A stretch of 64,000 nt of DNA from a phage: the NCBI GenBank assembly GCA_036252695.1, contig GCA_036252695.1_4122.1; one strand, 5' to 3'. The translations under genes were made by a program, and so were the position numbers. The notes below the pieces were generated by a model, which was given only the letters and a program-made list of their open reading frames with translations, searched no databases and had not been told where the DNA came from. Positions 3,496 through 31,415 of the stretch are shown here, piece after piece (positions within the stretch are counted from its first letter, which is position 1; each line of letters starts with the position of its first letter).

Positions 3496-3760
3496 AGTAC
3501 TTGTTGCTGAAACAATGAAGATGATTTACGATATCACGTCAGCACAGAATATGCCATATCCAACTAAGTCTTTATTGAGGACTGTGTATCTGGGGATAGT
3601 ACAGGAGTACTACAAATCCAAGCACAGAAGCATTATTAGTGTTTATCGTGATTATGAAAGGATTCGTATTTTATTCTGGAACAAGAATCGAGTACGTTCT
3701 GAATGTGATCTAGTAGATTTTAAATTAGAGAATCTTTATTGCTATAAACAGGGACAATAG
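3482..3760 (+). CDS. hypothetical protein
   Basis: ATG at 3482 preceded by AAGGA; reading frame of track ORF 3464..3760. Confidence 0.45.
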   Translation: MRTNEVLVAETMKMIYDITSAQNMPYPTKSLLRTVYLGIVQEYYKSKHRSIISVYRDYERIRILFWNKNRVRSECDLVDFKLENLYCYKQGQ

Positions 3761-3779
3761 TCTAATTCATGATATAATA
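3751..3779 (+). promoter_or_regulatory. sigma70-like early promoter (GGGACA -35, TGaTATAAT extended -10)
   Basis: gggaca, 16-nt spacer, TG-a-tataat; same architecture recurs at four other sites. Confidence 0.5.
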
Positions 3780-3818
3780 ATGGGTAAGGAACAATAATTA
3801 ACACAAGGAGTGTGTGAA

Positions 3819-4547
3819 ATGCTTGACCGTATCCGTTTCGCTACAGAGATGGCGAATGAATTAAACATGGCAAATTTCCAAATGTTAACATCAGTAATGG
3901 CTGAACATGCATGTGCTTATTCTGTAAGTGGTGTGCAGTGTGGTCAGGAGAATATGTTAGCAGATGTTTATAGTGAAGTACAAAGTAAGCAATATAGTGT
4001 AAAGACATATAAGGATAAGTTTGTTAGTCTTTATATGAACGAAGATATTGCCGAAGACCGCAAATTCACTGATTTTATTATTGAACGCCGAGTATCAGGT
4101 GTATCTAATCCTAATGCATCAAGCGATGAAGTTTTTGCAGAAGTACTGAAAGATATATACGAAAATGAATTAAAAAGTAAGAATCATTACAATGTACGTG
4201 AAACTAACACAGTGCTCTTGGGATATGATGAAGACGAAGAATACTATTATTTTCGTATGACTGAAGTTCCTTTTGAATACAAATCTCCATATACAACTAC
4301 AGTGAAAGAATTTACTGAAAAAAGTAAAAACTTTATGAAGCATGAAGGAAATCGTTGTAGTATAAATGGTTATGACGAAAATGGCATTCACATTTATGAA
4401 TGGGTTCACCCAAATTGTCAGACATACACTCGTTGCTTGAAAAAACGTTATAATTTAGAAGAGCATGAATCATTCTATTTTAAAGTTAAGAAGCAAGGTT
4501 ATACTCGCCCCGCCGATTCTGAATTGATGGGTATGATATATTTCTAA
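3819..4547 (+). CDS. hypothetical protein
   Basis: ATG at 3819 preceded by AAGGAG with 8-nt spacing; ~243 aa, downstream of the promoter. Confidence 0.6.
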   Translation: MLDRIRFATEMANELNMANFQMLTSVMAEHACAYSVSGVQCGQENMLADVYSEVQSKQYSVKTYKDKFVSLYMNEDIAEDRKFTDFIIERRVSGVSNPNASSDEVFAEVLKDIYENELKSKNHYNVRETNTVLLGYDEDEEYYYFRMTEVPFEYKSPYTTTVKEFTEKSKNFMKHEGNRCSINGYDENGIHIYEWVHPNCQTYTRCLKKRYNLEEHESFYFKVKKQGYTRPADSELMGMIYF

Positions 4548-4557
4548 GGAAACTTCT

Positions 4558-4839
4558 ATGGATTTTTATCTACACACATGGACATACGAACAATATATTA
4601 CATTATATCTTGAAATTATTAACACAGAACCTAGGTGTGGTTGTAGGTTCGCAGATATCATAAAAGAGTATGCTGACGAGTTCGAGTTTGTGTATCTTGG
4701 GTCTGATATATTTGTAAAAAGTGTAGGTAAAACCGGACGAATCACTGATATAGATTACGACACTGTTAGTGTGAATTTCTATGTTGATTTTCCTGATGCT
4801 GGCGTTGATGGTGTATATTGTCTTTATGAAATAATTTAA
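4558..4839 (+). CDS. hypothetical protein
   Basis: 93-aa ORF followed by a terminator. Confidence 0.5.
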   Translation: MDFYLHTWTYEQYITLYLEIINTEPRCGCRFADIIKEYADEFEFVYLGSDIFVKSVGKTGRITDIDYDTVSVNFYVDFPDAGVDGVYCLYEII

Positions 4840-5772: not shown

Positions 5773-6458
5773 TTAAAGATTTAGATAGAATTTTATATGT
5801 ACTAAGGGGTGTAATTACATTACATCCACAAATCAATCGAATTGAAAGTACATTTCAGTTGGAGTCAAGAGAAACTCCATATTCACATATATCAAATGTA
5901 GTTGGTTCACTCAGTACTGAAGACTCGTCTTACGATATTTGTGTATGTGAAGTACAACCAAGTTCGGATCTTGGATTTGCTATTTTTGATAAAGATCAAA
6001 ATCTCATTAGTATGTTTCAGTGCAATAATCCTTTTTGGAAAACATGCCTGTATCCAGAGTGGGCTATGCTTGATCCAACCAAGAGTACCATTAAAGTTTA
6101 TGACTCTAAAAATGATGAAGTCGTTATTGATTTGGATGAGTCAATGTCAGAGGAAGAACACTTTCAGCTAATGATGATGCGTGCTATGCCGGAATACAAT
6201 GCAATGATTAACACTGTGCAATACATTAAGGATACCATGCCAGCGTTGCGTACACATGAGTTTTGTCATCCGGTATTGTATGAACATCTAGATTTAGACT
6301 TCAGTACTATTAAATTTAAAGATAGTGTTAAAAAATATATTCAAGAGAATGTTAAATTTGATTTTATTAGTACTATGAACAATAATCCAAAAACTAATTT
6401 TAGGCATCAGTACAATGAATCTTTGTCTAATGGACGTGATACCAGTTGGTGGAAATAA
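5769..6458 (+). CDS. hypothetical protein
   Basis: 229-aa ORF with stop-start overlap. Confidence 0.55.
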   Translation: MIKDLDRILYVLRGVITLHPQINRIESTFQLESRETPYSHISNVVGSLSTEDSSYDICVCEVQPSSDLGFAIFDKDQNLISMFQCNNPFWKTCLYPEWAMLDPTKSTIKVYDSKNDEVVIDLDESMSEEEHFQLMMMRAMPEYNAMINTVQYIKDTMPALRTHEFCHPVLYEHLDLDFSTIKFKDSVKKYIQENVKFDFISTMNNNPKTNFRHQYNESLSNGRDTSWWK

Positions 6459-6459
6459 T

Positions 6460-6723
6460 ATGAATATTCAAGATAGATTACAATTACTGTACACACTTGA
6501 ACAGGCTGCTTATGATCTTGTTCGAAAAATCTCAGATGAACTACCTAAAGGAACTAAAGTTCGTGTACGTGAGATGAATTATTTTTCTGGAGTAATTGAA
6601 GAACAAGTACTAACAGTGAATAAAGTAACATACTATGAATCTGAGTTGTCTATTCAGTGTGAATCTGATGATGGATTAATATCATATTATGGAACTGATG
6701 TAGATATAGAGGTAATAAAATGA
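6460..6723 (+). CDS. hypothetical protein, small paralog family
   Basis: Internal ATG at 6460 just after the upstream stop; LPKGTKVRVREMNYF motif like other small paralogs. Confidence 0.45.
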   Translation: MNIQDRLQLLYTLEQAAYDLVRKISDELPKGTKVRVREMNYFSGVIEEQVLTVNKVTYYESELSIQCESDDGLISYYGTDVDIEVIK

Positions 6724-7862
6724 CCCTTTTGCAAATATATGAAGATTTAATGCACTTATGTAATACAAACGATGCATTCTTTTATGTGGATCATAAAAGT
6801 CCTGCTGGTGGCACGTATCGTGTATTCAGTTATCGTCTAGCATCATACACTGATTTCATGCAACCAAATGCGTTGGAAACCCGTGGCTCTATGTGGGAAA
6901 TTGATGAAGAAGGTGAAATGATACGTTGTGCAGCACGTACAATGAAAAAGTTCTTCAATGCTTACGAGAATCCTGCTACAATGTTCCCTGCTAACACCAC
7001 ATGCGATGACATTGCGGTAGTGATGCCTAAGTTGGATGGTTCGATTATCAGTACTTACCGTGATAATGATGGTGAGATTCGTTGTAAATCACATACTGCA
7101 TTGTATTCTGACCATGCGATTAACAGTACTCGACTTATTAACGAGAACCAGAATTTGTATCAGTACATCGACGAAGCGGAACGTTTAGGTTACACAGTTA
7201 ATATGGAGTATACAAGCCCAGAGTACCGAATTGTATTACCATATCAGGTAGAACAACTGTTTGTACTGAACGTTCGTCATCGTGTGAGTGGTGAGTTGCT
7301 ATGTGGTAAAGCACTACGTGATAAGTTTCCATGTCTTGCACAGTACAGTACTAATATGACTGGAAAAGATATTCATCACACTTTTCCGGTACGAAATACC
7401 TTCCGTGAAAGCGTGGAGGAAGTTCATAAAATGCTTGATATTGAGGGTTTTGTGTGCATCCTAAATAATGGGACAATGTGTAAAATAAAGACTGACTGGT
7501 ACAGTTCATTACATCTTACAAAAGATAGTATTATTATTGATTCTCATTTATATGAAGCAGTATTAAATGGTTCAAGTGATGATTTAAAACAATTGTTCAG
7601 TACTGATGAATATGCTATGCAAAAGATATTAAGAATGGAACAATTGGTATTTTCGTGCTATAATGCATTACAAGATGAAGTAGAAAGCTTCGTCAAGGAA
7701 CACAAGCACTTGGAGCGAAAGGAATTCGCAATGAAGGTTCAGGAGTGTTTAACTAATGAACTGAATCGTCAGGGCTTGGCCTTTGCAATGTATAACAATA
7801 AGAAAGTTGATTACAAAGAGACTCTTATAAAATACATGAAAATTGTACTAAAGGATTTTTAG
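6720..7862 (+). CDS. rnlA: RNA ligase 1 (T4 gp63-like)
   Basis: 380-aa protein colinear with T4 Rnl1 as recalled: FFYVDHKS..GGTYRVFSY, ETRGSMWEI and the nucleotidyl-lysine motif MPKLDGS. Confidence 0.8.
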   Translation: MTLLQIYEDLMHLCNTNDAFFYVDHKSPAGGTYRVFSYRLASYTDFMQPNALETRGSMWEIDEEGEMIRCAARTMKKFFNAYENPATMFPANTTCDDIAVVMPKLDGSIISTYRDNDGEIRCKSHTALYSDHAINSTRLINENQNLYQYIDEAERLGYTVNMEYTSPEYRIVLPYQVEQLFVLNVRHRVSGELLCGKALRDKFPCLAQYSTNMTGKDIHHTFPVRNTFRESVEEVHKMLDIEGFVCILNNGTMCKIKTDWYSSLHLTKDSIIIDSHLYEAVLNGSSDDLKQLFSTDEYAMQKILRMEQLVFSCYNALQDEVESFVKEHKHLERKEFAMKVQECLTNELNRQGLAFAMYNNKKVDYKETLIKYMKIVLKDF

Positions 7863-8393: not shown

Positions 8394-8682
8394 TTTACTA
8401 TATATAAAGTCAGTAGAAGCTGAAATTAAAAATTCAGTACAAACTATCGTCGATGAAATGATTGACAAATACAAGAGCAATCTTATTGGGAAGAAAGTCA
8501 GATGTTGGGATTACACATTTAAACACTGGTACGATTCCGAGATTGTGAAAGTTGATGTGAATACTGATAGTAATGGTCTAATTAATGGTATTGCGTATAT
8601 TGGTGTTTTAATACGAAAGGGAACACCACAGGAATGGCTCACCTATCATAATATAGAGCATGTTAAATTTTTAGAGGATTAA
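8371..8682 (+). CDS. hypothetical protein, small paralog family
   Basis: ATG at 8371; LIGKKVRCWDY motif; overlaps the previous ORF, so one of the two starts is uncertain. Confidence 0.45.
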   Translation: MINNAQSNLLYIKSVEAEIKNSVQTIVDEMIDKYKSNLIGKKVRCWDYTFKHWYDSEIVKVDVNTDSNGLINGIAYIGVLIRKGTPQEWLTYHNIEHVKFLED

Positions 8683-8685
8683 AGG

Positions 8686-9618
8686 ATGCCAACTATCACA
8701 CTAACAGTTGGATTGCCTGGGTGTGGTAAAACTACATGGGCAGTGCAAGAGATTAAAAAAGCCAAATCCAAGACTATCAACATCAACCGTGATGATATTC
8801 GTGAATCTATGGCTGGGTCACATGATGCTTACAAATTCAACGATGCTAATGAGCAGTACGTAGATAATTTACAGTTCAGTGCAGCAAATTCAGCAGCAGA
8901 GAATGGTTGGAACATCATAGTATCCGATACAAACCTTAAACCACATTTCCGTAATCTCTGGAAAGTATGGGCTACAGATAATGGTTATGATTACAAAGAA
9001 AAGAACTTCTATGATGATTTTGTACCTAATGAAGACCGTGGTGCAGATGTTCATGAATTCTTTAAGATTAAAGAGTTCGTAAAACTTTGTAAGAAATATA
9101 ACCTCCAGCGTGAGCGTTCAGTACCAGATGATATCATTGACAAAATGGCAGATACGTACTATTATAGTAAAGCATTACACATTGGTTACTATGGTAATTC
9201 ACGCGAAGCTGCTATCATCGTTGATATCGATGGAACTCTTGCTCATAAATGGGGTCGTAATCCTTACGATGAAAGTACTGTTCTTCAGGATACACCTGAT
9301 GAAGAAGTTATTTTGTCTATTATCGCTGAAGCAGTTTTTCATAAACGCAAGATTATCGTCATGAGTGGGCGTACTGAAGGGTGTCGTGCGGATACCGAAC
9401 AGTGGCTTAAGAATTGGGGTGTTCCTTACGATGCATTGTTTATGCGAGATATCGATGATAAACGTCCTGATGATGTTGTAAAATTCGACCTGTACATGAA
9501 AAATGTGGTTGATCATTACGATGTTAAAAAGGTATATGATGACCGCGATCAAGTTGTATTCATGTGGCGTAAGCTACTTGGGTTGAAAGTTTTCCAAGTG
9601 GCTGAAGGAAATTTCTAA
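8686..9618 (+). CDS. pseT: polynucleotide 5'-kinase / 3'-phosphatase
   Basis: N-terminal Walker A (GLPGCGKTT) kinase module and C-terminal DxDGT (VDIDGTLA) HAD-type phosphatase module; colinear with T4 Pnk; GAGGA RBS. Confidence 0.85.
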   Translation: MPTITLTVGLPGCGKTTWAVQEIKKAKSKTININRDDIRESMAGSHDAYKFNDANEQYVDNLQFSAANSAAENGWNIIVSDTNLKPHFRNLWKVWATDNGYDYKEKNFYDDFVPNEDRGADVHEFFKIKEFVKLCKKYNLQRERSVPDDIIDKMADTYYYSKALHIGYYGNSREAAIIVDIDGTLAHKWGRNPYDESTVLQDTPDEEVILSIIAEAVFHKRKIIVMSGRTEGCRADTEQWLKNWGVPYDALFMRDIDDKRPDDVVKFDLYMKNVVDHYDVKKVYDDRDQVVFMWRKLLGLKVFQVAEGNF

Positions 9619-22988: not shown

Positions 22989-23597
22989 ATGAAAAGACTA
23001 TGGCTTGAAGTGATACAAGCAGCGATGTTTCTATTGTTAATAAATTTTCCAGCCAGTGCTGGTATTGAAAGTAAAAATGTGATAAAGTATAATCCTGAAA
23101 CCCGAAATGTATATTTCATATCAGATATTACAGATGGGTCACTCAAGAGAATGATAGAGTTGTATGATAAAGAACACTATGATACCATCACAATTACATC
23201 TCCTGGTGGTGATTTTGATGCAGGTATTCGAATGGCAAACTTTGTTAGAGACAATGGGATAAATTTAATTGTTTCTAGGTATTGCAATTCAGCATGTACT
23301 GTGGTATTCTTTAGTGTATCTCCCGAAAAGCGATATATGACAAATCGCTCAGTACTGGGTCTTCATAACATTTCGATTAAAAGTAATGTTACTGATGGTG
23401 ATAATTCATTTGTGTCTGTAAGACAGCTATCAACTTTTACCGAAGAAATGGCAACAAAGGTAGGTTTCCTTTTTTCACTATATGCAGCAAATGGAATCCC
23501 ACCAGAAGTTCTATTTAGAGTTAGTCGTTCTCGTGGTGAAGATGTTGTAATATTAACAAAACCAGAACTGGTTTTTTACGGTTCAGTCAAACAATAA
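22989..23597 (+). CDS. ClpP-like (SPGG-motif) serine protease with a signal peptide
   Basis: ATG at 22989 after TGAGGA; hydrophobic N-terminus ending ASAG; ITSPGGDFDAG core and CNSAC / LGLHN at the positions of the ClpP Ser and His. Confidence 0.55.
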   Translation: MKRLWLEVIQAAMFLLLINFPASAGIESKNVIKYNPETRNVYFISDITDGSLKRMIELYDKEHYDTITITSPGGDFDAGIRMANFVRDNGINLIVSRYCNSACTVVFFSVSPEKRYMTNRSVLGLHNISIKSNVTDGDNSFVSVRQLSTFTEEMATKVGFLFSLYAANGIPPEVLFRVSRSRGEDVVILTKPELVFYGSVKQ

Positions 23598-23667
23598 AAA
23601 TAATTAAAATAACAGGATGATTATGATGTACTTCCTTTGTTATTAATTATATTGAGATTATATAACT

Positions 23668-23928
23668 ATGACAAACATCCAAAACTTGACATCTATTATT
23701 TTTTATGCTACTGTAGTAATGTATGCTACAGTTATTTTTCTAACAGTTTTCATTTACAAAGATTATCGTAATGGCTTTATTGATCCAACTACAATGAAGT
23801 TCAATTCAAAATTCGAAGCAATAATTTATTATGTACTATCAACTTCATACTTGGTGTGCCTAATGTTGTTAGGAGCACTAATTTATATCTTATACACAAC
23901 ATTATTTGCAATTGGAGCTATTTTATGA
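23668..23928 (+). CDS. small membrane protein
   Basis: 86 aa with several hydrophobic helices. Confidence 0.5.
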   Translation: MTNIQNLTSIIFYATVVMYATVIFLTVFIYKDYRNGFIDPTTMKFNSKFEAIIYYVLSTSYLVCLMLLGALIYILYTTLFAIGAIL

Positions 23929-24518
23929 CCTGTATTATTGCACACACTGACGGAGTAAGTTCTTTTATTGCTGGGGATAAGTTAGGAAGCAATGGATTTA
24001 CAAAAACTGTTCAAACTGAGCCAAAGGTATTCGAGAAAGAATTTATCAAGTTACATGATGATGGACTAACTAGAACTAAAGAAGTAATGGCATTGGGTTA
24101 TACTACATCATTTCGTATGGGTCAGTTGTTAAATTATAACCTTAATTTACCTGAACAAGATGCTAGTCAAACATTTTCACAATATTTGGTTCTTAAAGTT
24201 ATTCCAATCATTCGTCAAATGTTTAAAGAAGAATGGGGTGCACGAGATGCATCACAAGATGTAGGTGGTGGACAATTTATCATTCTCCACAATCATACAA
24301 TCTATGAAGTTCAAGAAGACTTTTCAGTACTACAACCTAAAACAAGAATTACCGCAGTAGGTAGTGGGACATATCATGCAATTGCAGCAATGCAAGCATA
24401 TATTGAAGTTGAGAACGAATCTAAAAAACCACTACACGAACGTATCAAATCAATTTTTAAAATTGTTAGTGATAATGTAACAAGCGTAAGCGAAGAGTTT
24501 GATGTTTTAAAATATTAA
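23925..24518 (+). CDS. HslV-like Ntn-hydrolase (proteasome beta-subunit fold) peptidase
   Basis: Internal ATG with ATGA overlap gives M-T-CIIAHTDGVSSFIAGD (Thr2 nucleophile, like HslV TTIVSV..VIAGDG); later ITAVGSGTYHAIAA resembles HslV IAIGSGGPYAQAA. Confidence 0.55.
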   Translation: MTCIIAHTDGVSSFIAGDKLGSNGFTKTVQTEPKVFEKEFIKLHDDGLTRTKEVMALGYTTSFRMGQLLNYNLNLPEQDASQTFSQYLVLKVIPIIRQMFKEEWGARDASQDVGGGQFIILHNHTIYEVQEDFSVLQPKTRITAVGSGTYHAIAAMQAYIEVENESKKPLHERIKSIFKIVSDNVTSVSEEFDVLKY

Positions 24519-24545
24519 AAGTACTAATATTATAAGAGAGAATAG

Positions 24546-24746
24546 ATGATGGCATACACAATTTATGAATGGGTTTTGAGTTTTTTTATAGTTTTTTCTA
24601 TTGTTGTAATTTATAACAATGCTAAATGCTTATATAGGGACTTGAAATCCAATGGTTATCACAAAGATAATAATTTTATGTATGCCTATCATATTGGAAT
24701 CATTCTGTTATTATCAATATATTTAATTGTTTTTTATAAGGATTGA
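24546..24746 (+). CDS. small membrane protein
   Basis: 66 aa with two hydrophobic helices. Confidence 0.45.
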   Translation: MMAYTIYEWVLSFFIVFSIVVIYNNAKCLYRDLKSNGYHKDNNFMYAYHIGIILLLSIYLIVFYKD

Positions 24747-24748
24747 AT

Positions 24749-25501
24749 ATGATATCAGAAAAATTTATAAGCAATGAAGGTAAAAAGCGATTACTGATTA
24801 TATCAGGTGCAGGACTTTCTGTTGAAAGTGGTATGGAACCTTTTCGATTTGATGATGGTTTGTGGGATACATTTAAAATTAATGATGTATGTAACATTGC
24901 TAGTTTAACTACAAAATATCATGTTGTTCATTCTTTCTATAATACATTACGTGTAAAATTGGGACAATGCGAACCAAATGCAATGCATTATTTTATAAAA
25001 TCGTTAGAAGATCAATATGGTGATTGCTTCCTTCATATGACTTCTAACATGGACGATCTTTATACTCGTATTGGTGGTCATGAGCTTAAACTTCATGGAA
25101 ACTTGTGTGAAGTTATTGAAAATTATAGTATCAATTCTGATGATTATAATGTTATTAACTGCGGATACGAACCATACATACCAAAACATGATGTTTTTGC
25201 TAAACCAAATGTAGTAATGATTGGAGAATATCATCGTTATGTTGATGGTATACGCTTACCAATTTACGAAGAACGAAATAATGTGTTGAAATCTCTTAAT
25301 GAAAATGATACAGTTATTGTAATTGGTAGTAGCGATACAGTACTGGTATGGTCGAGATTAGCAGCAGCATTACCATGTTATAGTGTTAATGTTAACATTC
25401 GTAAAAATGATAATGATTTTTTGTTTAATGAAAAAGTTATCAAGCCAGCAACCAAAGCAATACCACATCTAGAGACTATAATTAAGGAACGTATGAAATG
25501 A
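24749..25501 (+). CDS. Sir2-family NAD-dependent deacylase (CobB-type sirtuin)
   Basis: ISGAGLSVESGMEPFRFDDGLW NAD-binding motif; PNAMH..HMTSNMDDL (TQNID-like) and catalytic LHG colinear with E. coli CobB as recalled; ATG at 24749 after AAGGA. Confidence 0.75.
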   Translation: MISEKFISNEGKKRLLIISGAGLSVESGMEPFRFDDGLWDTFKINDVCNIASLTTKYHVVHSFYNTLRVKLGQCEPNAMHYFIKSLEDQYGDCFLHMTSNMDDLYTRIGGHELKLHGNLCEVIENYSINSDDYNVINCGYEPYIPKHDVFAKPNVVMIGEYHRYVDGIRLPIYEERNNVLKSLNENDTVIVIGSSDTVLVWSRLAAALPCYSVNVNIRKNDNDFLFNEKVIKPATKAIPHLETIIKERMK

Positions 25502-26049
25502 GTGTTAAAGAAGTTCCCTTTGGTGAATATGGCTCACGTGCAAATTTTGTATTTTGTTATTTCTTTGCAAGAAAATGTAACCCTTACAAAAACTATGAGT
25601 TGAATGATATACCAGAAGTAAATTTAGTTTTACTACAATTACGATGGGATGGTCTTCTTGGTGGATGTGGTGGAACCGTAGAAAGTACTGATATCTCACT
25701 AGAAGATGCGTTGCGTCGTGAAGTTCAAGAAGAAATGGATTACAATATTTTTGTTTCCCATCTTCGACCACTCAAAACTTTTGAAATTTACCCAGGTGCA
25801 AACAGTCACAGTTTTAGCTATGAAGTAACCTATGACGAGTTGAAACACATTAGAGATGGATACACTAATGCTAAACATGCAAGTGCAGAAGTTGCTGGTG
25901 TAAATTTATGTCATATTTCTCGTTATTCTAAGGGACAAAATCGAGAAGCGGGATATAATAATCTTATGACACAGAACTTCATCGGTACAGCAAGACAAGA
26001 ATTGGAGTATCTGGTTCAAAAAGAAAACTTACTAATTAGTTATCTATAG
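25498..26049 (+). CDS. Nudix-like hydrolase
   Basis: Nudix-box-like GGTVEST..LRREVQEEMDY segment (spacing slightly non-canonical); ATGA overlap with the sirtuin gene. Confidence 0.5.
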   Translation: MSVKEVPFGEYGSRANFVFCYFFARKCNPYKNYELNDIPEVNLVLLQLRWDGLLGGCGGTVESTDISLEDALRREVQEEMDYNIFVSHLRPLKTFEIYPGANSHSFSYEVTYDELKHIRDGYTNAKHASAEVAGVNLCHISRYSKGQNREAGYNNLMTQNFIGTARQELEYLVQKENLLISYL

Positions 26050-26058
26050 GAGTTTAAC

Positions 26059-26379
26059 ATGTCTTACGCAATGTTTTTGGATGATATTCGTGATGCAAAT
26101 CTATATTATCCAAACCAAGATATGGTGGTATGTCGTGACTTTAAAAGTGCATGTGAATATGTTATTGAAAATGGAATTCCAGCATTTGTATCATTCGACC
26201 ATGACTTGGGTGATGTGAGCGAAGACGAAAAGACTGGATATTCTTTTGCTAAGTTTCTTATTGATTATATGTTTGATAATAATATTAAAGAACCGTTTGA
26301 GTACTTTGTTCACAGTAGTAATCCTGTTGGTAAAATTAATATTGAAACATACTTAAACAATGGATTTAACGCATTATGA
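26059..26379 (+). CDS. hypothetical protein, possibly receiver-like fold
   Basis: 106 aa with LDDIRD, VSFDHDLG and VHSSNPVG in the order of receiver-domain acidic pocket / Asp / Ser-Thr positions; weak inference. Confidence 0.45.
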   Translation: MSYAMFLDDIRDANLYYPNQDMVVCRDFKSACEYVIENGIPAFVSFDHDLGDVSEDEKTGYSFAKFLIDYMFDNNIKEPFEYFVHSSNPVGKINIETYLNNGFNAL

Positions 26380-26678
26380 TTCAAACACACATCAAAAGTC
26401 TTATTTGTACTGTTCTGTTAGGTGCAGGAGTTCTTTGGTTCGGACAGTATCACGAGAACACTAAGCGTACCAACATTCACTACAATACCGCAGAAGTTGT
26501 TAGTTTAGGACAATGTAGCGAGTCCAAATGTTCATTCATGTATAAAACCCAAAGTGGTGAAGTACGTAATGGACTATCAAGAGAACCAGTTTCAATTGGT
26601 CAACTTGTTTACCAGGAGTGCTGGGAAGAAAAGGTTCGAGGTTCACGTTGCTATGTTGAATACGAACCAAATATGTAA
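26376..26678 (+). CDS. membrane-anchored hypothetical protein
   Basis: 100 aa with an N-terminal hydrophobic helix; stop-start overlap. Confidence 0.5.
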   Translation: MIQTHIKSLICTVLLGAGVLWFGQYHENTKRTNIHYNTAEVVSLGQCSESKCSFMYKTQSGEVRNGLSREPVSIGQLVYQECWEEKVRGSRCYVEYEPNM

Positions 26679-26738
26679 TAATCCGAGTCAATAACATTAG
26701 TCGAGTACAAGGATGTACTCATAACTCAAGGATGTTTT

Positions 26739-28178
26739 ATGAAAAAATATACAATTGACACAAATGTACTACTATCTGACCCTAATGCATCTATTGCTTT
26801 TGATGGTGCTGCAATCATTCTACCATTTACAGTACTGGAAGAATTGGATTCAATTAAGAGTCGTAATGTAGATGTTTCACGCGATGCTCGTGTTGCTATT
26901 CGTAACATTGAAGCAATTATTGCAGATGCATCACATGATGAGATTAGTAGTACTGGTGTTAATATTGCTGATGTTCATACCAATATGAATCCTGATAGCA
27001 AATTGTTTGTTATTACAAACGAAGAAGCTGAAGCACTAATTCGTACTAAAGGTTCAGAAGAGAAAGTTCAAACCCTTCTCAAAAGCACAGTACCTGATGA
27101 TAAAATCATTCTGGTAGCTTTAGCAACAGAATCAGTACTGGTAACTCGTGATATCAACATGCGTATCAAAGCACTAAGTTATGGTGTCGAGGTACAAGAT
27201 TATCGCCATGATATTGTTATTGGTGATAGTGATTTGATTCACATTGGTCAACACCATTTGGAAATTAATTTTTGGGAAGTATATAGCAACTTAACCAATA
27301 CTAATATTCAATCCGAACAAGTTGGTCGTCGTTTGTATCATTACATTTCTAAAAGCTTGATTGAACATTTGCTTCCACAAAATCTATGCATCGGTGATTA
27401 TCTATATGATGATGCTGACGTATTATTTGTGTACGAAGGACAATCAGCAATTGAGGAAGATGATGGAACACTAACACCAGAAGATATTTTGGTATTCCAA
27501 GACATTGGACAATCAGTGGCTTTACGTGCTAAAGTATGGGATATTAAAGCAAAGAATATCCAACAAGCACTCGCCATCAACAGTATTCTCGATCCTGATG
27601 TACATCTAACAGTACTGCTAGGTTCTGCTGGTACTGGTAAAACACTAATTACAATTGCTACTGCATTAGAATTAGTACTGGAAAAACGTAAATACGACCG
27701 AATCATCTTCTCTAAAACTCAAGACTCACAGTTTGAAGATATTGGTTTCTTGCCAGGTTCAGAAGCAGAAAAAGTGATTCCATTCTGTGGAGCCGCGATT
27801 GATGCGTTAGAGTTTCTTCATAAAGATGATGCCAACCCACAAGGTAGTATTGAAGAGATTATGAAACGTAATGTTATTCAATTTAAAGCACTAAACTTTG
27901 TACGTGGACGTTCATTCACCAACACTATTCTAGTAGTTGATGAATTCCAAAACATTACACCTGCACAAGCAAAAACCATCTTGACACGAGCAGGGTTAAA
28001 CTGTAAAGTAGTAATTATGGGTAACTTGAGTCAGATTGACAGTAAGTTTATTAGTCCTGTTAACAGTGGTTTGACATATGTAACTGAGAAGTTTAAAGAC
28101 TGGGCAGGTTGTCGTGTCATCGAACTAGAAGGTGTTGTTCGTTCACCACTGGCTGAATTTGCTGAAGAAAATATGTAA
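26739..28178 (+). CDS. phoH: PIN-PhoH (PhoH2-like) ATPase
   Basis: N-terminal PIN-like region (YTIDTNVLL) fused to a PhoH-type NTPase with Walker A GSAGTGKT and DEFQN Walker B. Confidence 0.75.
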   Translation: MKKYTIDTNVLLSDPNASIAFDGAAIILPFTVLEELDSIKSRNVDVSRDARVAIRNIEAIIADASHDEISSTGVNIADVHTNMNPDSKLFVITNEEAEALIRTKGSEEKVQTLLKSTVPDDKIILVALATESVLVTRDINMRIKALSYGVEVQDYRHDIVIGDSDLIHIGQHHLEINFWEVYSNLTNTNIQSEQVGRRLYHYISKSLIEHLLPQNLCIGDYLYDDADVLFVYEGQSAIEEDDGTLTPEDILVFQDIGQSVALRAKVWDIKAKNIQQALAINSILDPDVHLTVLLGSAGTGKTLITIATALELVLEKRKYDRIIFSKTQDSQFEDIGFLPGSEAEKVIPFCGAAIDALEFLHKDDANPQGSIEEIMKRNVIQFKALNFVRGRSFTNTILVVDEFQNITPAQAKTILTRAGLNCKVVIMGNLSQIDSKFISPVNSGLTYVTEKFKDWAGCRVIELEGVVRSPLAEFAEENM

Positions 28179-28186
28179 TATTGTAT

Positions 28187-28215
28187 GGGACATTACGTCC
28201 CATACATGATATAAT
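28187..28215 (+). promoter_or_regulatory. sigma70-like early promoter with overlapping hairpin
   Basis: gggaca, 17-nt spacer, TG-a-tataat; the -35 lies in a tgggac-attac-gtccca hairpin right after the phoH stop. Confidence 0.55.
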
Positions 28216-28246
28216 GTTGTTATCATAATACAGAAGGAGATATAAA

Positions 28247-28435
28247 ATGGCTAAACAACCTAAGAAACAAGAACCAGTAGCAAAAGTTAAGAAAGAGAAA
28301 GTTATTCAATCCAAAGAACAACGTATGTACGAACAACGTAAGAGTGAAACCCTATCCGGTCTACAAGCTCTACGTAAGCAAGGTGTACTAACTCGTGCAC
28401 AGTACCGTGAACTAGTAGCTCAGAAAGGTTTTTGA
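28247..28435 (+). CDS. small basic protein
   Basis: 62 aa, Lys/Glu-rich, behind a strong promoter and GAAGGAG RBS; C-terminal LTRAQYRELV resembles a SHOCT-like motif. Confidence 0.55.
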   Translation: MAKQPKKQEPVAKVKKEKVIQSKEQRMYEQRKSETLSGLQALRKQGVLTRAQYRELVAQKGF

Positions 28436-28539
28436 TTCATTTGAAGCAATATTGTGGAGTTCTTAATAAATACTTTTATAAGAATAATAATACTTTTTAT
28501 TAAATTAAAAAGAACTCCATGTGTTATTTCAGTTTTTCG

Positions 28540-28566
28540 TCCCTGTCTTTTGGCAGGGATTTTTTA
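28540..28566 (+). terminator. rho-independent terminator
   Basis: tccctg-loop-caggga hairpin followed by a T-run; a separate 10-bp inverted repeat (tggagttctt / aagaactcca) lies upstream. Confidence 0.5.
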
Positions 28567-28661
28567 TATCTATATCTTGACAAAAGGAACAAATCATGAG
28601 AACATGTATTAAAGGAAGAATGACTTTCCATTAGGTTATTTTAACTTAAAGGAGATTTCAT

Positions 28662-29219
28662 ATGTTTTTTGACCAAACATTTACGTTGTATCACGATTCT
28701 GGTAAAGTTGAGATTGTAGACGATCTACTTCAATACATTGCTGACCATCAAGGGATAGATCGTTTCCACAGTAAGATGAAATTTGATTTAGCAGAATTCA
28801 ACAAAAAGAATCGTGAAACTTTTTGGAAGAACCGTTTCTATTACGAATTGTTCCCAGAAGAGTTTGTGGGTTATTATCTTTGTACTGAAAAAGGATTACT
28901 TGTATCTCCTGATTTACTTATGGGTGAATACATGATACTCTATAATGAGTACTGGGAACATAAACGTAAAGCTCGTGATACGGAATGGCGACATAAGCGT
29001 TCGTATATGTACAAACATAACCACTCCCGATACAAGCGTCCTAAGACTCAACAAGAGCGTCGTATGGCTTGTGCAGTACTGAAGGATGAGGGGGAACCTG
29101 ATATACGTGGAAGACGTAAGATGCGTTCATTACCATCGTATTGGGACGATATCAGAACAAGACATAGTACTGGCTGGAAATACAGTACTAAACGTAAACA
29201 TCAATACAAAGGGAGCTAA
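28662..29219 (+). CDS. hypothetical basic protein
   Basis: 185 aa, Arg/Lys-rich C-terminal half; AAGGAG RBS. Confidence 0.55.
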   Translation: MFFDQTFTLYHDSGKVEIVDDLLQYIADHQGIDRFHSKMKFDLAEFNKKNRETFWKNRFYYELFPEEFVGYYLCTEKGLLVSPDLLMGEYMILYNEYWEHKRKARDTEWRHKRSYMYKHNHSRYKRPKTQQERRMACAVLKDEGEPDIRGRRKMRSLPSYWDDIRTRHSTGWKYSTKRKHQYKGS

Positions 29220-29246
29220 TGCTCCCTAATTTTATAGGTGAACTTT

Positions 29247-29576
29247 ATGAACAAAATTGACGTTACTGTAGTGATTGGTTATATTGAAATTGAACCGTGT
29301 GGCATTGATACCTTTATTGACACTCTTAATAAGTATCGTGCTGAATATAACGGTCACATTAGTCTTTCACCAGACAGTGGTTACGGCGGTTTTCATGGAT
29401 ACAATGTAATTTGGACCAGAGAAGAAACTGACGAAGAATATAATACACGAATTGAAGCTGAATCTAAAAGATGTGAAGAAATTGAACGTCAAGAAATGAA
29501 ACACTTAATGAACAAGAAATCATTAAGTACCGAAGAGAAATCTAAACTGCTAAAATACATCAAGGATTACATGTAA
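29247..29576 (+). CDS. hypothetical protein
   Basis: ATG at 29247 (track ORF opens at GTG 29238). Confidence 0.5.
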   Translation: MNKIDVTVVIGYIEIEPCGIDTFIDTLNKYRAEYNGHISLSPDSGYGGFHGYNVIWTREETDEEYNTRIEAESKRCEEIERQEMKHLMNKKSLSTEEKSKLLKYIKDYM

Positions 29577-30226
29577 TGAAAAATGTAACTCAAGAAAAGA
29601 TTCTGTACCTTGCAAAGTACAATGGTGGTTTCAATATCATTAGCCGTGAGTACAGTGGTAATTTGGCTAAGTTGATTGACAGTTTGTTAGAATTTGATTT
29701 CATTAAATGGGAAACTAATGAACTTTGGTACGAATATGCTGGTCAGAAATGGGAAAGTGATTATGATAATGCAATACATTCATACACTATCACCAAAGCA
29801 GGTGAAGTTCGATTAGCCATTATGCGTTGTGCATATACTTACAAAAATCATAAAGGTGAAGAAAAACATATTCGCAGAAATGAAGAGCTATTACTTCTCA
29901 TGGAAGCAGCAAAAGTTACAATGCATGATTTGTTCCACCACCCACGTTGGTATGAAAATCTAACAAAAGCAGAGTACAAAGCTTTACGTTACATTGATGA
30001 ACAAAACAATACCCCAGTTGTAGTTGATGATGTTTGTGATGGTGAACTAACCATCAAAAACGTATTTGAAAGCACCAGTACTGAAAGTATTACAGACATT
30101 TCTGTACAGATGGCACTAAAAGCAATGGAACTTTTCAAGACACAATATGAAGGACACAGTGCTGAAGAAGTAGAGCGTGAGTTCATCACACGCGTACAGA
30201 TTGCATTGTTCCAATCGAAAAAGTAG
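29576..30226 (+). CDS. hypothetical protein
   Basis: 216-aa ORF with ATGA overlap. Confidence 0.55.
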   Translation: MKNVTQEKILYLAKYNGGFNIISREYSGNLAKLIDSLLEFDFIKWETNELWYEYAGQKWESDYDNAIHSYTITKAGEVRLAIMRCAYTYKNHKGEEKHIRRNEELLLLMEAAKVTMHDLFHHPRWYENLTKAEYKALRYIDEQNNTPVVVDDVCDGELTIKNVFESTSTESITDISVQMALKAMELFKTQYEGHSAEEVEREFITRVQIALFQSKK

Positions 30227-30443
30227 GATGATATGAAATATGAACATCCGTGATGGGTTATCATATAAAGAAGCAGGTAAAGATGGTGTCAAAGGTGAAG
30301 CTGTAGATCTTTGCATTTGTGCACTTGACATGTTCGCTTTGTAATGCGATAATATGAGTTCAGAAGAGATGGAACGTGAGTTCCTTACTTACATGAATGT
30401 TAAACTAGCCAAATGGCGTAAATCAATTCAATAGGTATTTTAA

Positions 30444-31415
30444 ATGAAAACTAAAATTATTTCTGAACAAAAAATTGGCAATACTACAGTACTGAATCTT
30501 GAAGTTCAAGGTCTTAGTAATGTTCGTTCTCTTACGGTTTGTACTCAGAGAGATGATTTGACTGATTTCTATAGCTCAGAATACATGTCAGAAGAACCTT
30601 GGGATATGGGATGGTTGGACGGTAGTAGTTATATCAGTTCACGTTATAGTTTTGGTTCTCATGAAAATATTGAACAATTAAAAAATGAGTATATTAAACT
30701 CAGTGATACTATTGAAATGAAAGAAGAAGATTGTGTAGAACTTTTCATTTTTGAATTCGATGCCGGAAATGGTAATTCATTACTAGTAAGTAATATTGAA
30801 GAACATTTAATGTATCATGAAATTGAAGATGTAGATTTTGAAAGTATTAAAAATGTTGTTCATATGGTTGGTGGTAGTATTACTGATGATTCAGATATCG
30901 GTCATAATATTTCACTGTGCTTAATTTCTCATCCAAAAACTCGTGGTTTTAAAGTTCCACAAGATGAAACTTACGTGTCTGAAACTGCTGATGAAGGAAT
31001 TTATCCTTGGAATGATTATGTAGAATACTATGGTCATTTCTGTTCTGATACAAAAGAACTGAAAAAAGGCGAACAATATTTTGATATGTTCCGTGCTGCA
31101 CAGCGTTTAGTACTGAATAATACTGAACTATTTCCTGATCGCGGCGAAGAAAATATGATTGATATTATCTTCAAGAACTATGATTATGTACAGAACATTC
31201 CTGATAATGTACATTTGGAATATGTTCACGGTTCTTCAAACAAATTCTATAATATTGAATTGAATGCTCCAGTGTGTGAAGTAATTATTGAGTACGGTGC
31301 TATTGGTAAAACCAGTACTACAGATGGTGAAGAATTCGAAACTATTGAAGAAGCACGTAAGTTCTTCGAGAAGAAAGTAATTTCTAAAATTAAAAGTGGT
31401 TATAGCCCAAAATGA
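30444..31415 (+). CDS. WGR-domain protein
   Basis: C-terminal ~80 aa (SSNKFYNIEL..YGAIGKT...EEARKFFEKK...GY) matches the WGR pattern; N-terminal 240 aa unassigned. Confidence 0.55.
   Translation: MKTKIISEQKIGNTTVLNLEVQGLSNVRSLTVCTQRDDLTDFYSSEYMSEEPWDMGWLDGSSYISSRYSFGSHENIEQLKNEYIKLSDTIEMKEEDCVELFIFEFDAGNGNSLLVSNIEEHLMYHEIEDVDFESIKNVVHMVGGSITDDSDIGHNISLCLISHPKTRGFKVPQDETYVSETADEGIYPWNDYVEYYGHFCSDTKELKKGEQYFDMFRAAQRLVLNNTELFPDRGEENMIDIIFKNYDYVQNIPDNVHLEYVHGSSNKFYNIELNAPVCEVIIEYGAIGKTSTTDGEEFETIEEARKFFEKKVISKIKSGYSPK

Follow-up and report, generated by a model that had tools for sequence, protein, structure and literature searches.

A PIN-PhoH fusion protein of RaK2-like jumbo phages is probably an RNA translocase coupled to an endoribonuclease

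Introduction

PhoH2 proteins combine an N-terminal PIN nuclease domain with a PhoH-type P-loop ATPase. Mycobacterial PhoH2 unwinds and degrades RNA with a 5' overhang in an ATP-dependent manner, and a helicase-dead variant (R339A) is inactive; the authors suggested that a hexameric ring passes the RNA on to the PIN domains, which form a ring of their own (PMC7390352). The crystal structure of C. glutamicum PhoH2 (3b85) is of the ATPase domain alone.

In phages, phoH is among the most widespread of the so-called auxiliary genes, and it serves as a marker for the diversity of marine phages. To our knowledge, the only PhoH-type proteins of E. coli K-12 are PhoH and YbeZ. Fusions of PIN to PhoH have also been described in phages (Matelska et al. 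2017; Iyer et al. 2021, PMC7824862). For the jumbo phages, Iyer et al. noted that PhoH is combined with an N-terminal PIN endoRNase and called its role there "enigmatic" (PMC7824862). According to a paper from 2025, phage PhoH proteins have so far been without any functional analysis (PMC12484599).

Compared with single-domain PhoH, the PIN-fused form gives a clearer hint of mechanism, as the motor is coupled to an identifiable nuclease. Here we consider a PIN-PhoH gene within a 64,000-nucleotide stretch of phage DNA (the window). This gene is a known and annotated member of the PIN-PhoH family, and its architecture was described before; our concern is what the protein might do.

Results

The gene is complete and runs from 26739 to 28178 on the + strand. 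In the list of open reading frames it has an ATG start, a TAA stop, and an uninterrupted frame of 479 codons. The antisense and out-of-frame ORFs in that list that overlap 26739..28178 are all short and none of them is supported. The predicted protein has a mass of 53.2 kDa (53.208 kDa as computed) and a pI of 4.8. Over 3 kb, the surrounding DNA shares 99.4% identity with that of Escherichia phage 121Q. This phage is a jumbo myovirus of about 348 kb from the genus Asteriusvirus, and its counterpart of the gene is gp480, annotated as "PhoH-like phosphate starvation-inducible." At least 15 phage records contain a protein that is 100% identical, including PBECO4, phAPEC6 (where it is gp341c), slurp01, G17, Sharanji, and about 10 others. 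One Asteriusvirus record names it "PINc domain-containing."

Full-length orthologues at 45-80% identity are found in RaK2 (gp506, 80%), CBB (CBB_123) and GAP32 (both about 70%), and Vibrio phage 2.275.O. The GenBank note on CBB_123 already lists both PF13638 and PF02562. We see no substantial difference between the protein in the window and the PIN-PhoH proteins of other jumbo phages, so we treat it as the Asteriusvirus representative. The gene is intact, is under strong purifying selection, and has been kept across the RaK2-like jumbo phages. Compared to the orthologue from Ecwhy_1, dN/dS is 0.043 overall, with values of 0.061 for the PIN domain, 0.099 for the middle of the protein, and just 0.014 for the PhoH domain; compared to RaK2, it is 0.12.

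The protein has three parts, which appear as separate modules (residues 1-156, about 170-255, and 269-479) in an AlphaFold2 model of the monomer that was built from an alignment of homologues (mean pLDDT of 84). First, residues 4-156 (26748..27206, + strand) match all of Pfam's PIN_4 model (positions 1-132 of 132; E = 7e-20, 72 bits versus a cut-off of 21.9). Second, residues 170-255 or so (27246..27503, + strand) are predicted to form a beta-rich module, as judged from the AlphaFold2 models (pLDDT of roughly 80-90) and the alignment. No Pfam family covers this middle module, which is the most variable part of the protein and which in the jumbo-phage clade carries an acidic insertion. Third, residues 269-473 (27543..28157, + strand) match Pfam's PhoH family (E = 7e-44, 150 bits versus a cut-off of 27), and this assignment agrees with the invariant columns of the alignment and with the similarity to 3b85 in both sequence and fold. 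Among phage protein families, PHROG 2765 matches the protein from end to end (E = 5e-163), while phrog_170, the ordinary phage PhoH family, matches residues 265-473 only.

The likely catalytic residues are all in place. We aligned the protein to a set of homologues from phages and bacteria (26 sequences, 44-86% identity). The four acidic residues of the PIN domain (D7, E35, D120, and D138) are invariant. In the PhoH domain, the Walker A motif is GSAGTGKT (G295-K301), with G295, A297, G298, G300, and K301 invariant, and the Walker B motif is DEFQN, with D401, E402, and Q404 invariant. Also invariant are Q276 of the Q motif, GFLPG at 336-340, RGRS at 389-392, R417, G428-N429, Q432, D434, and R468. 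An earlier note, made from the sequence alone, had proposed that a PIN-like nuclease is fused to a PhoH-type NTPase and had staked this on the acidic residues of the PIN domain. Profile searches, the catalytic residues, and the predicted fold confirm the fusion, and the acidic residues are present. The note's description of the family as putative RNA helicase/RNases of the PhoH2 type also agrees with the literature (PMC7390352, PMC5499597, PMC7824862).

What kind of nuclease is the PIN domain? A profile search with residues 1-268 finds the PIN domain of human SMG6/EST1A (2hww, E = 0.0015), and D120 and D138 align with SMG6's NDD and TDDRN motifs. The active-site residues of SMG6 include D1353 and D1392 (PMC5499597). 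SMG6 (2dok, 2hww) is the endonuclease of nonsense-mediated decay; it differs from the phage protein in that it is eukaryotic, has no fused ATPase, and acts together with a separate helicase, UPF1. In the predicted structure, the PIN fold is of the RNA-endonuclease type, and the closest structures are RNA endonucleases rather than FEN-like 5' nucleases.

In a Foldseek search of the PDB with the whole model, the top match was 3b85 (TM of 0.78 over the target), which is also the best match for residues 269-479 or so by sequence (E = 2e-22, 28% identity). Searches of the PDB by sequence and by fold gave no structure of a full-length PIN-PhoH protein. The other matches by fold include the SF1B RNA helicases Sen1, SETX, and Upf1 and the archaeal PIN-ATPase PINA (5f4h), which is hexameric and drives branch migration of Holliday junctions. 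The similarity to PINA is an architectural analogy and not membership in the same family: the TM score for the whole chain is about 0.22, with around 10% identity.

The match to PINA does raise the question of whether the phage protein acts on DNA, as a helicase-nuclease for replication or recombination intermediates that would resemble Dna2 or PINA. Dna2 is also among the whole-chain matches, and that some PIN-ATPases act on DNA counts against an RNA substrate. Genes for a DNA ligase and a dCMP deaminase lie within 10 kb. Also, in Synechococcus, inactivating the host's PIN-PhoH led to a higher yield of phage DNA. However, the TM scores to PINA and Dna2 are only about 0.2 for the whole chain, the PIN domain is a PIN_4 member whose closest structures are RNA endonucleases instead of FEN-like 5' nucleases, and the sole biochemistry for the family is on RNA (PMC7390352). 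So we consider a DNA substrate to be quite improbable.

How similar is the phage protein to mycobacterial PhoH2? Mycobacterial PhoH2 (NF053827) has the same order of domains, PIN_4 and then PhoH, and it shares the four acidic residues of the PIN domain, the Q motif, the Walker A and B motifs, and the conserved arginines. In contrast to mycobacterial PhoH2, proteins of the jumbo-phage clade carry insertions within the helical region of the PIN domain and within the middle module, and their Walker B motif is DEFQN instead of DEAQN or DECQN. Also, the phage protein is phage encoded and has been detected in virions (see below), and its gene lacks the small co-transcribed upstream partner (PhoAT-like) that mycobacterial phoH2 has. 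Against NF053827, which is an equivalog model ("RNA 5'-3' helicase PhoH2"), the phage protein scores 152 bits versus a cut-off of 680. By these scores it is no equivalog of the characterised protein and is related to it only distantly, so we transfer the general mechanism of PhoH2 to it and not the substrate specificity or the regulation.

For the whole protein, 4329 cluster representatives matched at E <= 1e-10, among 8000 candidates that were scored. The N-terminal module alone, a query that leaves aside the ubiquitous ATPase, matched 2207 representatives (clusters at 50% identity), and most of these proteins have 430-500 amino acids. Collinear homologues are found in bacteria such as Thalassotalea and Pseudoalteromonas ("PhoH family" proteins of 459-478 amino acids), with 40-42% identity and 99-100% coverage of the query. 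In phages, the fused form is in the minority: 3689 of 50,697 phage records match the protein, of which 301, the PIN-fused ones, have at least 80% coverage of the query, and about 3,400 match residues 270-475 or so only, i.e., they encode single-domain PhoH. The 97 phage matches at E <= 1e-60 are mostly from jumbo phages of Enterobacterales and Vibrio.

The single-domain proteins (E. coli PhoH and YbeZ, and those of T5, T4-like phages, and cyanophages) have the ATPase in common with the fused form and lack the PIN and middle modules. We mention this because the annotation of the 121Q protein suggests an auxiliary metabolic gene for phosphate starvation. The name "PhoH-like phosphate starvation-inducible" appears in many records, and phage phoH has traditionally been regarded as part of the Pho regulon, but nothing else favors this role. 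The equivalog model for E. coli PhoH (NF007827) matches residues 268-472 only, with 93 bits versus a cut-off of 380; Fedida and Lindell explicitly separate PIN-PhoH from ordinary phoH; and no feature of the protein relates to phosphate uptake. We view a role in phosphate starvation as close to negligible.

Upstream of the gene are a SIR2 gene (24743-25501), a Nudix gene that is Nudt16-like (25498-26049), a gene with a cREC domain (26059-26379), and a gene for a small membrane-anchored protein with four conserved cysteines (26376-26678), which is found in RaK2-like phages only. The earlier note placed the PIN-PhoH gene next to a sirtuin/Nudix block; the block is real, with the cREC and membrane-protein genes in between. 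In RaK2, ORF502-506 follow the same order (Sir2, Nudix, cREC, membrane protein, PIN-PhoH), and in CBB the Nudix and cREC parts are fused in a single protein, CBB_121. Further away, the Sir2/Nudix block is absent: near the homologue in a Vibrio jumbo phage we find only a gene for NAMPT, and the chromosomal homologue in Thalassotalea is not adjacent to Sir2 or Nudix genes. The adjacency is thus conserved only within the RaK2-like enterobacterial jumbo phages. The linkage is confined to one lineage, and being next to these NAD-related genes gives no evidence for a joint function of PIN-PhoH and their products.

Nevertheless, these neighbors could suggest a role in conflicts, for instance as an RNase that acts against co-infecting phages or the RNAs of host defenses, or else as a factor for ribosome rescue or RNA quality control. 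The products of the Sir2, Nudix, and cREC genes are predicted to be involved in conflicts over NAD or ADP-ribose, PIN domains are typical toxins, and a host PIN-PhoH in Synechococcus restrains the cyanophage Syn9. Iyer et al. (2021) proposed that jammed ribosomes are cleared or that the role is one in post-transcriptional regulation (PMC7824862). But besides the narrow distribution of the Sir2/Nudix linkage, the gene has no antitoxin-like partner, and PADLOC yields just weak whole-sequence matches to Nhi and AbiO across the P-loop, at the level of P-loops in general, with no stretch that is significant by itself. We think that a conflict module is very improbable.

We did consider whether the small ORF just upstream might be an antitoxin like PhoAT, and rejected it, as this cysteine-rich membrane protein is confined to one phage lineage and its gene is absent beside the homologues from the Vibrio phage and from Thalassotalea. 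The PIN-PhoH gene is not in a toxin-antitoxin arrangement.

The signals around the gene suggest how it might be expressed. A Shine-Dalgarno-like AAGGA (26728..26732, + strand) lies 6 nt 5' of the ATG and is shared by five Asteriusvirus sequences. Also within the 60-nt spacer that precedes the gene is a 7-bp hairpin, GAGTACA-AGGA-TGTACTC (26703..26720, + strand), with no T-run after it. In phage A4 the stem has a compensatory double change (GAGCACA/TGTGCTC). Possibly this hairpin is an RNA 5'-end, processing, or stability element.

A second hairpin, with a perfect stem of 10 bp and the loop ATTAC, starts 4 nt past the stop codon (28182..28206, + strand, with arms at 28182-28191 and 28197-28206). 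Its centroid energy is -16 kcal/mol, and the 86-nt region gives z = -2.5. Ecwhy_1 and ph0011 have an identical stem and differ in the loop alone; JNE01 has a different hairpin in the same place; and RaK2 and CBB have unrelated hairpins at this position that are followed by T-runs, while the hairpin in the window lacks a canonical U-tract. Because these relatives have hairpins at the same place, it appears that a terminator or 3'-end structure is conserved by position, and the hairpin in the window probably forms the 3' end of the PIN-PhoH transcript or acts as its terminator. A search of Rfam with 23000-31000 gave no match.

The same hairpin overlaps a promoter-like site, GGGACA-N14-TGATATAAT, with an extended -10 (28187..28215, + strand), which precedes the next gene (ATG at 28247). 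The GGGACA (28187-28192) is at the -35 position and lies inside the hairpin, while TGATATAAT (28207-28215) abuts its 3' arm. So the earlier note's statement that the gene ends directly before a promoter embedded in a hairpin is accurate as a description of the sequence. The same combination of GGGACA-N14-TGATATAAT occurs at 3751, 13497, 51184, and 61933; GGGACA has a strand bias of 14:1 toward the + strand; and TGNTATAAT occurs 17 times versus 9.2 expected by chance. Phage A4 has a canonical TTGACA aligned to the position of the GGGACA, and in RaK2 the orthologue of the downstream gene is preceded by TTGACA-N17-TATAAT. Given the recurrence of the motif and the elements in A4 and RaK2, a sigma-70-type promoter for the gene downstream of PIN-PhoH is plausible. 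The note also called the promoter "early," which is an assumption: it would follow only if the host's polymerase reads this site.

The protein has also been seen in phage particles. In the structural proteome of phAPEC6, from CsCl-purified particles, gp341c is listed as a "PhoH-like protein" of 53.21 kDa with 8 peptides and 30.9% coverage. RaK2's gp506 is in the virion list of that phage (Table S3; 53.675 kDa, 4 peptides, 6.1% coverage); the main text is silent about it, and the paper on CBB alludes to its detection.

Discussion

By analogy to mycobacterial PhoH2, we propose that phage PIN-PhoH (PhoH2-type, COG1875) is an ATP-driven RNA translocase that feeds a coupled PIN endoribonuclease and thereby acts in the turnover or processing of RNA. 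We put the probability of this at roughly 70%. The motor would be the PhoH P-loop ATPase, a relative of the RecA-like domain that comes first in SF1 helicases, and the nuclease would be a metal-dependent PIN endoribonuclease of the SMG6/VapC-like kind. If the analogy holds, then the protein would oligomerise, probably as a ring; it would bind single-stranded RNA and use ATP to translocate 5'->3' and unwind; and the unwound strand would pass to the PIN active site (D7/E35/D120/D138) and be cut. In the infected cell, the effect would most plausibly be faster turnover or processing of structured RNA, from host messages and possibly from earlier classes of phage messages. Possible targets include host mRNA, early mRNA of the phage, defense RNAs, and stalled ribosomes.

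The RNA substrate, the polarity of the helicase, the oligomeric state, and the biological target are all things that we infer. We favor RNA because of the type of PIN domain, the helicases that are nearest by fold, and the genomic setting. As to the setting, the window encodes an RNA ligase, a polynucleotide kinase, a CCA-adding enzyme, an HPF/RaiA-like protein, and the Nudt16-like Nudix protein, which is of a decapping type. PIN-PhoH may act alongside these and many other RNA-directed genes from the same arm of the genome.

The proteomics raises the possibility that PIN-PhoH is packaged, for instance with the inner body, is ejected along with the DNA, and hits host RNA ahead of all phage gene expression. 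We consider this unlikely, i.e., delivery by the virion is a minority possibility. In its favor, gp341c, with its 8 peptides and 30.9% coverage in phAPEC6, exceeds several genuine tail proteins that are listed alongside it, phAPEC6 does possess an inner body, the neighbors Sir2, Nudix, and cREC are missing from its virion list, and the orthologue is in the list for RaK2. On the other hand, CBB_123 is absent from the 55 virion proteins of CBB. Also, the lists for phAPEC6 and RaK2 hold proteins that are obviously not structural (thymidylate synthase, an ssDNA-binding protein), so a protein that binds nucleic acids, as PIN-PhoH is expected to, could simply co-purify. Finally, the late-promoter-like TATAAATA occurs just 3 times in the window, and each copy is more than 3.7 kb from the gene's start. 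We therefore rejected a T4-type late promoter for this gene.

That the ejected protein attacks host RNA or RNA-based defenses in the first moments of infection strikes us as similarly unlikely. Delivery by the virion would refine the explanation that we prefer, a translocase coupled to an endoribonuclease, and does not contradict it. We know of no reported case of an RNA helicase-RNase that is delivered by a virion. If true, this would be the first function for any phage protein of the PhoH family. Either way, the published and unremarked detection in the virions of two genera sharpens the question of what phage PhoH proteins do. Because culturable E. coli phages such as 121Q, PBECO4, and phAPEC6 carry PIN-PhoH, they offer a convenient entry to this question.

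One last observation concerns the ATPase. In some homologues (e.g., from P0079 and Vibrio phage 1.161.O), an intein with a Hint domain and a LAGLIDADG endonuclease is inserted directly after the GTGK of Walker A. Inteins typically occupy sites that are intolerant of change, so this position fits with an essential ATPase site.

Genes near the PIN-PhoH gene

The genome arm that carries the PIN-PhoH gene also holds a cluster of RNA repair and translation functions. Using the gene products (gp) of Escherichia phage 121Q to place genes in the window, we find an RNA ligase (about 6371-7513, from gp438), a polynucleotide kinase (about 8610-9542, from gp443), an HPF/RaiA-like ribosome-associated protein (about 57700-58100, from gp533), and a tRNA nucleotidyltransferase (about 59700-60800, from gp539). 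A second Nudix protein (gp540) is encoded in the same arm.

Closer to the PIN-PhoH gene, a Nudt16-like Nudix gene (25498-26049) adjoins a gene for a cREC, or "cyclic-phosphate processing receiver," protein (26059-26379), and the Sir2-Nudix-cREC block is kept across Asteriusvirus, Alcyoneusvirus, and Mimasvirus. Nudix and cREC are separate genes in the window; in Pectobacterium phage CBB they form a single fusion protein of 299 amino acids (CBB_121, at 3729-4628 of locus L003), which argues that the two proteins work jointly.

Just upstream of Sir2 is a gene for an HslV-family peptidase (23856-24518), and two genes for ClpP-like proteases lie farther upstream (the protease genes correspond to gp464, gp473, and gp475 of 121Q). 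Scattered among these protease genes are others whose annotation is virion structural protein, so the region upstream of Sir2 is not exclusively "early."

Directly 5' of the PIN-PhoH gene is a small gene (26376-26678) whose product has a membrane anchor at its N terminus and contains four conserved cysteines. Both CBB and the related jumbo phage RaK2 have a counterpart at the same position, with 44-46% identity; there is no counterpart in a Vibrio jumbo phage.

Some homologues of PIN-PhoH are interrupted by an intein, comprising a Hint domain and a LAGLIDADG homing endonuclease, which is inserted in the Walker A loop, straight after GTGK. Examples are the homologue P0079, in which the intein spans residues 289-640 or so, and a homologue from Vibrio phage 1.161.O (MG592529.1, 94626-97064).

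Promoter-like motifs and hairpins

A promoter-like motif, GGGACA-N14-TGATATAAT, occurs on the + strand of the window at 3751, 13497, 28187 (which follows the PIN-PhoH gene), 51184, and 61933. GGGACA itself is found 14 times on the + strand versus once on the - strand. Additional TGNTATAAT sites with GGAC-like -35 elements are at 7656, 18971, and 59527. The full motif may represent a phage-specific class of promoters with a non-canonical -35 element. The core of the T4-type late promoter, TATAAATA, is depleted across the whole window (3 occurrences versus 13.3 +/- 4.2 expected), and just one of the three is on the + strand.

A 7-bp hairpin with the loop AGGA (26703-26720) sits in the spacer that precedes the PIN-PhoH start. 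No T-run follows it, and its stem has a compensatory double substitution in phage A4. On the other side of PIN-PhoH, 3' of the small downstream gene, lies a nested inverted repeat that is long and AT-rich (28455-28519; arms at 28455-28469 / 28505-28519 and 28463-28479 / 28487-28503), and after this repeat comes a canonical intrinsic terminator (28539-28560), with a 9-bp stem and then TTTTTT.
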